Below, piece after piece: positions 10,022 through 43,960 of a stretch of 64,000 bases of DNA. The position numbers and the translations under genes are program-made. The stretch comes from Actinomycetes bacterium (lineage in GTDB: Bacteria > Actinomycetota > JAHEXW01). Each line of letters opens with the position of its first letter. Within the stretch, counting starts at the first letter, position 1. The stretch spans positions 11,033-75,032 of the forward strand of contig JAHEXW010000003.1 in the NCBI GenBank assembly GCA_023251915.1, in the 5' to 3' direction. The notes below the pieces were generated by a model that did no database searches, had not been told where the DNA came from, and saw only the letters and a list, made by a program, of their open reading frames with translations.

Positions 10022-10152
10022 GGAAGCATTATACCTTAGCGCCGGCGTTGTCTTGTTTCGTCTCAATTCCCGCGTTCTAGAAATCCCGGGACCCAGGATG
10101 ACATCTTCACGTTTGGCCTTGTTGCTATCGTTTCTCGGACGATCCCGCTTAT

Positions 10153-10209
10153 GTAGCTGCCAACCTTTAGGTCGGCAGCCGACTGCCGGTCTAAAAGACC
10201 GGCAGCTAC
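10153..10209. repeat. REPIN-like doublet of GTAG-family REP sequences
   Basis: GTAG-CTGCCAACC-TTTA-GGTCGGCAG, then in inverted orientation GTAG-CTGCCGGTCT-TTT-AGACCGGCAG. Confidence 0.7.
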
Positions 10210-10259
10210 ATTTTTGCACCCAAAAGCCAACGAAAAAGACTCTGCGAAGTCGTGATCTT

Positions 10260-10541
10260 GCGAGTGAGTGGTGCCCCCGGATTTTCTAGGTCGCGGCTCG
10301 TGCGTTCGCGGGTGAGTTTGCCGCGCCTGCCTGCCGGCAGGCAGGTCGCCCCTTTTTGACGAGCGAGTGTCTGCGCGGGTGATGCGACTGGGGGGACCCC
10401 CGATGCGCGTGCAGGCCACCAATCGGCGAGCACGCAGTGGGGGAAGTCTGTCGCGGCAGGACCCGCGCGTGATGCGAGTGAGTGGTGCCCCCGGATTTTC
10501 GAGGTTCGCGGCTCATGCGTTCGCGGGTGAGTTTGCCGCGC
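10260..10541. repeat. Two 67-68 bp direct repeats, each containing the tRNA-Arg 3' end
   Basis: 10260-10326 and 10474-10541 differ at 3 positions; both contain TGGTGCCCCCG (= 10648-10658); perfect 20-bp palindrome CCTGCCTGCCGGCAGGCAGG at 10326-10345. Confidence 0.85.
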
Positions 10542-10609
10542 TCATTCCATTCGCTCGCAATGACGAGCTTTTCGCGCCTGCCGGCGCGAACAGGTTCGAA
10601 CAGTAAAAG

Positions 10610-10652
10610 CACCATCTCGAAATCCTACTCTCAGCAGGACTTCGAGATGGTG
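10610..10652 (-). terminator. Intrinsic terminator overlapping the tRNA-Arg 3' end
   Basis: CACCATCTCGAA...TTCGAGATGGTG inverted repeat, followed by CTTTT on the minus strand. Confidence 0.7.
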
Positions 10653-10724
10653 CCCCCGACAGGATTCGAACCTGTGGCCTACCGCTTAGGAGGCGGTCGC
10701 TCTATCCAACTGAGCTACGAGGGC
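10648..10724 (-). tRNA. tRNA-Arg(CCT)
   Basis: GCCCTCGTAGCTCAGTTGGATAGAGCGACCGCCT-CCT-AAGCGGTAGGCCACAGGTTCGAATCCTGTCGGGGGCACCA; full cloverleaf, encoded CCA. Confidence 0.97.
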
Positions 10725-43569: not shown

Positions 43570-43571
43570 AT

Positions 43572-43597
43572 GTAGTTGCCGGTCTTTAGACCGGCAA
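43572..43597 (+). repeat. Single GTAG-family REP
   Basis: GTAG-TTGCCGGTCT-TT-AGACCGGCAA; near-identical to the copy at 10183-10209. Confidence 0.7.
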
Positions 43598-43653
43598 CAG
43601 CTTGGTGCATTTAGCATCTGATATAATCAGTTACCTAGTCGAAGTGAGATTAA

Positions 43654-43711
<58 letters not shown>

Positions 43712-43729
<18 letters not shown>

Positions 43730-43960
43730 AAAACAAATGATCTTAGACCCGGCCAACCGGGCGGGTTTTTGTTTTGGAAATATTTCGAAGGGTCTCGAAC
43801 CCGAGGGGGATTCTTAAAGGGGGAGAGGCTCCCCCTTTAATCTAAAGTTTAAGGAAGGGGGAACTCAAGGGGGAAACCTTTGGTTGCCCCTGTGAGGAGG
43901 ACGGACAGCTGGGTGGCCGCCCGACCGTTCGATGACCCGTTTCCCGCTCCAAAAACAAAT
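43712..43960 (+). mobile_element. ~222-bp att-like mini-element at the tRNA-Gly 3' end (remnant or non-autonomous)
   Basis: 27-bp exact direct repeat GACCCGTTTCCCGCTCCAAAAACAAAT at 43712-38 and 43934-60; inverted T-arm copy at 43790-803; 12-bp-arm hairpin at 43814-40; no ORF. Confidence 0.6.

Follow-up and report, generated by a model that had tools for sequence, protein, structure and literature searches.

Directly behind tRNA-Arg(CCT) in an uncultured groundwater actinobacterium lies a stretch of DNA in which short pieces of the tRNA gene recur in both orientations, and it raises the question of what kind of array this is and what it does there. The locus belongs to a window of 64,000 nucleotides (the whole stretch of DNA that was analysed) from a 1.42-Mb genome of 56.5% GC in 39 contigs, here called G000. 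A preliminary description had read it as an array of tRNA-matched mini-elements. Reading away from the tRNA, and with antiT standing for the inverted tRNA copy, the following features were found.

10648..10724, minus strand: tRNA-Arg(CCT), intact, CCA encoded (ARAGORN; Rfam tRNA 72.6 bits)
10603..10653, minus strand: CCA-anchored trailer hairpin with U-tract, terminator-like, T1 (inverted repeat, 21 nt, 90%)
10590..10600, minus strand: antiT, exact 11-nt reverse complement of tRNA positions 50-60 (against 10665-10675)
about 10571..10590, no strand: small palindrome directly after the antiT (inverted-repeat search)
10494..10564, minus strand: core module of unit 1 (BLAST and motif counts in the genome; relatives)
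10474..10493, minus strand: direct repeat 1, the tRNA 3' end CGGGGGCACCA and 9 nt CTCACTCGC (repeat search)
10280..10473, minus strand: interior of unit 2, GC-rich REP-like pieces (repeat and motif searches)
10326..10345: perfect 20-nt palindrome in unit 2 (inverted-repeat search)
10280..10326, minus strand: second copy of the core module (direct-repeat search)
10260..10279, minus strand: direct repeat 2, the tRNA 3' end and the same 9 nt; end of the array

The terminator whose stem had been said to include the CACCA end is present. Its arms (10609-10629 and 10633-10653) are 21 nt each and 90% complementary, the 5' arm begins within CACCA and a T-run follows; CCA-anchored hairpins of this kind are present at most other units of the genome. 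The antiT, reported earlier as an 11-nt inverted copy of the T-arm and indeed exact, covers the 5' strand of the T-stem and the T-loop and lies at offset 48-58 from the tRNA end, within the genome-wide 48-67. From the T-arm to this inverted copy the sequence folds into a single long hairpin (-59 kcal/mol, z = -9.45). Both palindromes of the preliminary description were recovered, and the one after the antiT is, by comparison with the tRNA-Val, tRNA-Lys and tRNA-Leu units, the counterpart of the 'inner hairpin' of the Family-2 units described below.

The two repeats of 67-68 bp, each holding the last 11 nt of the tRNA, stood in part. The 3'-terminal 11-mer TGGTGCCCCCG is copied at 10483-93 and 10269-79 inside two 68-nt repeats with 95.6% identity and a spacing of 214-215 nt, but the 5' half of these repeats is dispersed REP-like sequence and is not purely tRNA-derived. 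The first ~36 nt of the unit-1 core are part of a dispersed REP-like family marked by the 11-mer GTCATTGCGAG, which occurs 56 times in the genome, and the remainder (GCAAACTCACCCGCGA..CGCGAACCT.GAAAATCC) is common only to the distal units of the tRNA-Val(CAC) array. A search for this core in relatives gave only partial matches, away from tRNAs, in G001, a genome of the same genus. The four ORFs of the array region had no Pfam match, in line with the earlier statement that no protein-coding gene is evident. Contigs assembled from the source metagenome span the array at about 10x and confirm its arrangement, and no alternative joint was found among them.

Units of the same layout were found behind about 17 of the 39 tRNA genes when all 39 were scanned for an inverted T-arm copy and a 3'-end repeat. 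The shared order is the tRNA 3' part, a CCA hairpin, the antiT, a non-coding core, a direct copy of the tRNA's own 3' part (T*, sometimes in tandem) and a trailer. The antiT is an inverted copy of the T-arm and variable region, exact over 11-20 nt and placed at offset 48-67 apart from a single case at offset 10, while T* matches its tRNA over 11-41 nt or more at an offset of about 146-208; the two were found at the same tRNAs, or at others among the ~17. The direct repeat measures 11 nt at Arg(CCT), 27 nt at Gly(CCC) and up to 41 nt or more at Ala(CGC). Some loci carry extra copies one period further downstream, and the number of tandem units is two at Arg(CCT), three at Ile, at least two at Val(CAC) and about 1.5 at Ala and Leu(CAA). 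The core begins 18-31 or 55-83 nt behind the tRNA in this genome and its relatives. All units of the genome, and nearly all in the relatives, lie directly 3' of the tRNA in the orientation of its operon.

For 38 tRNAs we counted inverted matches of at least 11 nt within 110 nt and direct matches of at least 11 nt at 110-280 nt, and compared them with three controls.

Cognate tRNA and trailer (38 tRNAs): inverted 12, direct 14
Shuffled trailers, mean count per set: inverted 0.01, direct 0.04
Mirrored upstream sides (38): inverted 1, direct 0
Non-cognate tRNA/trailer pairs: inverted 3.5%, direct 6.9%

Matches of 11 nt are thus far beyond what shuffling yields, and each array is matched to its own tRNA, as had been proposed. 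Shuffles, mirrored upstream sides and non-cognate pairs together rule out a chance origin of the pattern.

The recurrence of the layout at tRNA-Gly, with sequence of its own, was likewise found in the window, and this unit, not the Arg(CCT) locus, is the informative one. It consists of the following parts.

43654..43729, plus strand: tRNA-Gly(CCC), intact (tRNA search; Rfam)
43726..43778, plus strand: CCA-anchored terminator hairpin (sequence; fold)
43790..43803, plus strand: antiT, a 14-mer, reverse complement of tRNA positions 50-63
43804..43925, plus strand: Family-1 core with hairpins P1, P2 and P3 (model R1, 122.6 bits; covariation)
43926..43960, plus strand: T*, altered copy of the tRNA 3' part

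An exact 27-nt direct repeat (43712-38 and 43934-60) links the tRNA to T*, whose T-loop contains an inserted T; behind T* comes a trailer of ancestral type, as judged from trailer homology with G001. The segment 43700-43806 folds at -51.1 kcal/mol (z -5.4), and a single-sequence fold of the unit is no better than shuffles (z -1.1). Within the core, the single-stranded UAAGGAAGGGG and the P2 loop GAAAC..UGGUUG are conserved.

Across the units, the 3' arm of the CCA hairpin terminates in TGG and a U-tract is usually present. The antiT is mostly an exact complement of the real tRNA, and T* mostly carries one extra base, placed 2-3 nt before TTCG or inside the T-loop. The duplex of antiT and T* (the anti:T* stem) is predicted at -20 to -39 kcal/mol, against -9 to -17 in shuffles, and it borders the core on either side and so closes it. 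Since the antiT complements the tRNA and also pairs with T*, it is able to pair back, with the tRNA, or forward, with T*. The anti-T-loop often reads GAUGAGAA rather than GAUUCGAA, both in the units of Actinomycetota and in those of Escherichia coli considered below. The GAGAA form, found in many units and in E. coli, sets a tandem G.A opposite UUCGA, which is an RNA-type feature.

The arms enclose at least three core types in this genome, and a fourth, unrelated one is found in E. coli. Family 1 (Ala-CGC, Gly-CCC, Arg-ACG, Gly-TCC, His, Leu-TAG, Gln-CTG and Glu-CTC) has a core of roughly 120 nt at the tip of the stem. In Family 2 (Val-CAC, Val-TAC, Lys-TTT and Leu-CAA) a small tip hairpin is combined with a bulged hairpin, GGA(G)CUUUUC...GAAAAGUCC, that interrupts T*. 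The third type is that of Arg(CCT), present also in distal units of tRNA-Val(CAC) and nowhere else; REP-like pieces occur within the Arg(CCT), Ile, Thr and distal Val(CAC) units. A layout that stays the same around at least three unrelated core types in this genome, and around a fourth one in E. coli, argues for a general principle and not for a single family of miniature inverted-repeat transposable elements (MITEs), which upholds the preliminary description on this point. MITEs are defined by constant terminal inverted repeats, a target duplication of fixed length and a cognate transposase. Here the arms are tRNA-specific except for the T-loop box, the duplications range from 11 to about 100 nt, and no transposase for the units was found among the TnpB, reverse transcriptase and tyrosine recombinase families searched; on these points the units do not qualify as a MITE.

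The Family-1 core gives evidence on the molecule that is under constraint. An alignment of 16 sequences supports three hairpins, with 90.6% of cells paired and compensatory changes in 16 pairs, and none of 500 shuffles scored as high. With 42 sequences the values are 90.7% of cells paired and compensatory changes in 28 of 29 pairs (reached by 0 of 500 shuffles), in an alignment that favours the structure because it was fitted to model R1. Covariation in hairpins can arise in DNA too, through template switches that correct palindromes. In helix P2, 18 G.U pairs stand against one A.C, and this asymmetry identifies the strand under constraint as the tRNA-sense strand. The same asymmetry removes an opposite-strand tRNA-like gene from consideration. 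A hammerhead-like reading of the motif CUGANGA was also rejected; its bases lie within a covarying helix and the GAAA strand is absent. The core matched no Rfam family, and a search of the units with Rfam 15 at gathering and lenient thresholds returned tRNAs only. In the one metatranscriptome from the same sample, available as assembled contigs, the tRNA alone was visible.

With model R1, each of the five genomes of the class proved to have the core (8, 2, 6, 4 and 20 copies), as did 14 of about 296 other sampled Actinomycetota, there mostly right behind tRNAs with matching arms. It spans several classes of the phylum. Copies away from tRNAs in three genomes (G004, G161 and G278) have a different 5' hairpin and lie at assorted intergenic sites, and in G262 cores follow one another in tandem about every 126 nt, with only GGTTCGGACGCGAACC boxes between them. 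As a candidate for a new family of structured RNA, the Family-1 core is well supported.

Relatives show that units come and go. The tRNA-Arg(CCT) of G001 is identical, but behind it lies a simple terminator of unrelated sequence, and there are no units. The preliminary description had pointed to empty sites in relatives as a check, and a clean one exists at tRNA-Gly(TCC) of G001, where the Gly-His spacer of the Pro-Gly-His-Arg-Lys-Leu cluster is 18 nt long. The corresponding spacer of G000 holds a 157-nt insert and a duplicated 3' end, and the ancestral trailer follows the distal copy. Deletion remnants were seen at His and Leu-TAG in G001 and at Arg-TCT in G000. Family-1 units sit at different tRNAs in different genomes, and in a short tree of the cores, which has no support values, the copies of G003 and of G004 each form a genome-specific clade; an extra hairpin of ~35 nt is common to all cores of G003. 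In the same tree, again with no support values, the copies of G000, G001 and G002 are intermixed and only Arg-ACG pairs by tRNA. Information thus passes from one tRNA locus to another inside a lineage, whether by gene conversion or by spread.

A known class of repeats has this layout. The tRNA-linked repeats (TLRs) of E. coli have been known, according to the account in PMC8144298, since Egan & Landy 1978 and were treated by Rudd 1999. In K-12 there are 22 of them at ten loci, one to five at each; their hallmark is that the last 18-19 bp are the same as those of the tRNA or rRNA upstream, and they are without known function (PMC8144298). Those of the rrn operons are made by terminator read-through, are processed and bind Hfq and CsrA, and the authors proposed the repeat as an RNase E processing signal (PMC8144298).

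The TLRs of E. coli, among them the tyrT 178-bp repeats (RtT RNA) and the rrA, rrB and rrF repeats of the rrn operons, are the closest known counterpart of our units. At the tyrT-tyrV locus of K-12, positions 56-77 of tRNA-Tyr recur in inverted form at offset 60-81, followed by a partial sense T copy, a structured segment and a 19-nt copy of the 3' end at offset 160-178. The period of 178 is that of the classical 178-bp repeat, which is RtT RNA (rttR, RF00391), and in the Rfam consensus structure of RtT the inverted copy (antiT) is paired with the 3' repeat. RF00391 is found at 16 places in K-12, at tyrTV, proK, the lysT cluster, valU-lysV, serX and the serV-arg cluster. The proK, serX and lysQ/lysV loci show a terminator, an antiT at 51-78, a direct repeat at 139-181 and a duplicated trailer with terminator; over these loci and tyrT/tyrV the offsets are 51-81 for the antiT and 139-181 for the direct repeat.

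Like TLRs, the actinobacterial units sit directly behind the tRNA and on its strand, end in the same 3' sequence as that tRNA, measure about 130-230 nt and number one to three in tandem at a locus. In both, a terminator hairpin precedes the unit and often recurs behind it, the inverted T-arm copy is paired with the 3' repeat, and a single core family serves several tRNAs with tRNA-specific ends. They differ in the length of the repeat (11-41 nt or more, against 18-19 in E. coli), in the position of the core, which is at the stem tip in Family 1 and interrupts T* in RtT and also in our Family 2, in their density (about 17 of 39 tRNAs, against ten loci in E. coli) and in belonging to another phylum. 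The cores have no detectable sequence homology to E. coli RtT: RF00391 did not match the units of G000 at E up to 10, and its best score, 28.5 bits against a cut-off of 45, was for a mini-unit after tRNA-Ser(GCT) of G002. Membership in the class is therefore by architecture and not by demonstrated common descent.

The arrays thus have the defining layout of TLRs and are of a known kind; what is new is the phylum and the cores, and the density is unusually high. The identification of the Arg(CCT) locus as an array of TLR type is one that we hold with high confidence. It is a two-unit and more degenerate example, whose units look the most degenerate of all members. They have neither a Family-1 core nor an anti:T* stem of their own and are partly REP-like, so they may be decayed or merely duplicated DNA.

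As to what the units are, they are probably TLR-like passengers of tRNA operons that are transcribed, are trimmed by way of their tRNA-like 3' end, and are gained, lost and homogenised through recombination. Read-through of a leaky first hairpin would transcribe the unit, antiT and T* would form the stem that closes the core, and the tRNA-identical 3' tail would recruit the enzymes of tRNA 3'-end processing to cut or trim the passenger RNA, leaving a small stable RNA. At the level of DNA, unequal recombination between the direct repeats could give both tandem duplication and clean loss of a unit. Gene conversion could homogenise cores or spread them between the tRNA loci of a genome, with the shared core, the near-universal T-loop box GGTTCGA and its inverted copy as the route. 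This scheme leaves unaccounted for the first origin of arms that fit a new tRNA. We put the probability of the explanation as a whole, a two-unit TLR array together with this RNA and DNA mechanism, at roughly 0.6; the RNA-processing mechanism taken by itself we regard as close to an even bet, and slightly under it.

The main rival to the reading as TLR RNA is a selfish DNA element that does not encode its own mobility and that travels as folded single-stranded DNA or as a double-stranded circle. Its anti:T* stem would imitate the T-arm duplex of a tRNA gene, as the attC and CTX-phage attP hairpins imitate their targets, and a recombinase of the host, or one acting in trans (Xer-like or other), would insert it in the T-loop and so restore the tRNA 3' end. 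Such integration predicts exactly the order seen, that is, the tRNA 5' part, an element-borne 3' end with a new trailer, antiT, core, an altered strand of the T-stem 5' side, and the original 3' end with the original trailer. The extra base of T* also resembles extrahelical bases or junction scars, the units vary in presence between relatives, form tandem arrays (with the boxed array of G262 as an example), occur away from tRNAs in three genomes and have genome-specific core clades, and the tyrT region is enriched in exonuclease-resistant 'mobilome' DNA of stressed E. coli (preprint 10.1101/2024.07.17.603846). Like integron attC and CTX-phage attP(+), the units have an imperfect stem with extra bases, able to imitate a duplex target, and a variable structured tip, but they come with no IntI-type integrase and with tRNA-specific arms, and the likeness is one of resemblance only. 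A search for PF00589 in G000 found only two tyrosine recombinases, both Xer-sized (296 and 315 aa), and no phage-type integrase; none of the five genomes of the class has TnpB (PF07282) or reverse transcriptase (PF00078), on which ground an RNA-guided or retro-mobile element (IS200/605 TnpB omega-RNA, retron or group II intron) was rejected. Moreover, the arms fit more than 20 tRNAs, which a site-specific enzyme would not need and a moving element could not carry along, every tRNA-linked unit is oriented with its tRNA, and the G.U bias is on the sense strand. We consider a selfish DNA element unlikely, and the earlier term 'mini-element', in so far as it meant mobile DNA, was not borne out: the covariation and the G.U bias fit a transcribed RNA of the tRNA-sense strand at least equally well.

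Integrase islands are classically recognised by direct repeats of a tRNA 3' end beginning in the T-loop, and such islands do occur at two tRNAs of the relatives, so decayed att sites of ordinary tyrosine-integrase islands once resident in these tRNA genes were also considered. Islands with T-loop att sites share with the units the T-loop-starting repeats, a functional 3' end supplied by the element and an original trailer at the distal side; the units differ in having no integrase or cargo genes, and in their structured core, inverted T-arm and variable repeat extent. The real islands, at tRNA-Val(GAC) and tRNA-Gly(CCC) of the relatives, have plain junctions with neither antiT nor core, which counts against a selfish element as well, and model R1 found nothing convincing at nine integrase loci, among them no full-length island with antiT and core. 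Loss of cargo would have had to stop at the same ~200 bp at about 17 tRNAs, with a conserved structured core as the remaining cargo and an antiT foreign to known att sites. With only the Xer-sized recombinases in G000 and no Pfam-matched ORF in the array, an island remnant was rejected and is very improbable. A somewhat better case, still a poor one, can be made for functionless by-products of local rearrangement in the highly transcribed, hairpin-rich 3' flanks of tRNA genes, where template switching and slippage would give direct-inverted-direct triplications that later trap REP-like repeats. It would account for three copies of the tRNA 3' part per locus (direct, inverted, direct), each matching its own tRNA, for the variable repeat extent and for the REP-like pieces; parts of the Arg(CCT), Thr, Ile and distal Val(CAC) units are indeed copies of dispersed repeats as in REP/BIME sequences, but REPs are not matched to tRNAs and lack the inverted and direct arms. 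Left unexplained are a 120-nt core whose unpaired motifs are conserved and whose helices covary across classes, its constant placement exactly between the arms, and offsets that are constant in two phyla.

Returning to the passenger reading, the same design with unrelated cores in distant phyla suggests that the architecture itself, and not a sequence, is selected or generated. TLRs may then form, as a tentative and speculative extension, a class of tRNA-operon passengers across phyla that hijack end-processing with an anti-T-arm/T-arm stem and a tRNA-identical tail. If so, units may also spread between tRNA genes by way of the universal T-loop box, and the Family-1 core would be a new small RNA, widespread in actinobacteria and with its own function, possibly titrating an RNA-binding protein (compare CsrA and Hfq for the rrn TLRs) or reporting read-through. 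The actinobacterial units give comparative leverage on a question about TLRs open since 1978, and their constant parts (the anti:T* stem, the 3' tail and the dual hairpins) are directly testable in E. coli K-12. Such units also break assemblies at tRNA loci and can be mistaken for att sites of genomic islands.

In G004 one further core runs directly into position +1 of a full tRNA-Ser(CGA). Ahead of this core stand a copy of tRNA positions 1-20 and an arm partly complementary to the 5' end of the tRNA, and the arrangement is the same formula applied at the 5' end.

Family-1 cores, the non-coding cores of about 120 nt with hairpins P1, P2 and P3, were also found away from tRNAs. Seven such copies are present in G004, a relative within the class (L046, L052, L054, L059, L060, L062 and L063), and four more in two other Actinomycetota, G161 and G278 (L085, L086, L093 and L094). 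A 5' region, CCCTCCCTTGATGGGAGG .. AAAGRGCG..hairpin, is conserved among these copies, and their third hairpin is of a different type. Their sites are various intergenic positions, one of which lies immediately 5' of a ribosome-binding site and ATG. A further locus in the Actinomycetota genome G262 (L089, C59:9870-10360) carries at least four cores in tandem, spaced about 126 nt apart from start to start and separated solely by a palindromic box, GGTTCGGACGCGAACC; no tRNA was found within 1.6 kb of this array.

All Family-1 cores include an invariant, unpaired segment between P1 and P2, UAAGGAAGGGG (positions 43849-43870 of the window). This segment resembles a Shine-Dalgarno sequence or a GGA motif, and it is not followed by a start codon in the Family-1 cores.

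One Family-1 core is joined to the 5' end of a tRNA. At L042 (G004, C6:1-450) the core runs straight into an intact tRNA-Ser(CGA) at its position +1, and upstream of the core lie a copy of positions 1-20 of this tRNA and an arm that is in part complementary to the tRNA's 5' end. Outside the window, the source genome G000 includes two partial copies of the tRNA-Met(CAT) 5' end upstream of that tRNA (C4:2620-3210). Each copy is split in the D-loop by a hairpin module of about 70 nt, and together they flank a small GIY-YIG-like open reading frame. Here the 3' layout may have a counterpart at a tRNA 5' end; alternatively, the arrangement may be what is left of a homing endonuclease.

A further CCA-anchored trailer family, CCA|TTCTTCGCC..hairpin..GGCTACGAATGG followed by CAGGCCA, was observed behind several different tRNAs in G001, G003 and G004 (L009, L039, L043, L047, L061 and L065). 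Some tRNA genes of G004 (L057, L033 and L066) apparently lack an encoded CCA but nonetheless have units with matching arms, and the CCA itself is therefore dispensable for the layout.

Classical integrase genes directly adjoin tRNAs in the relatives (L067, L070, L071 and L072), namely tRNA-Val(GAC) in G001 and G002 and tRNA-Gly(CCC) in G003 and G004. Integrase genes of this kind are absent from G000.

The arrays of the window also include or adjoin repeats:

10151-10211, REP-like hairpin ATGTAGCTGCCGGTCTTTTAGACCGGCAG.., at the far end of the tRNA-Arg(CCT) array
10529-10564, member of a dispersed repeat family, also found genome-wide, that starts with (C)GTCATTGCGAG(C)GAATG.AATGAGCG
43570-43600, REP-like hairpin ATGTAGCTGCCGGTCTTTTAGACCGGCAG.., immediately upstream of tRNA-Gly

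By motif count, ATGTAGCTGCCGG occurs 7 times in the G000 genome, and an 11-mer of the dispersed family 56 times. This dispersed repeat supplies part of the unit sequence behind tRNA-Arg(CCT), tRNA-Thr(CGT), tRNA-Ile(GAT) and tRNA-Val(CAC).
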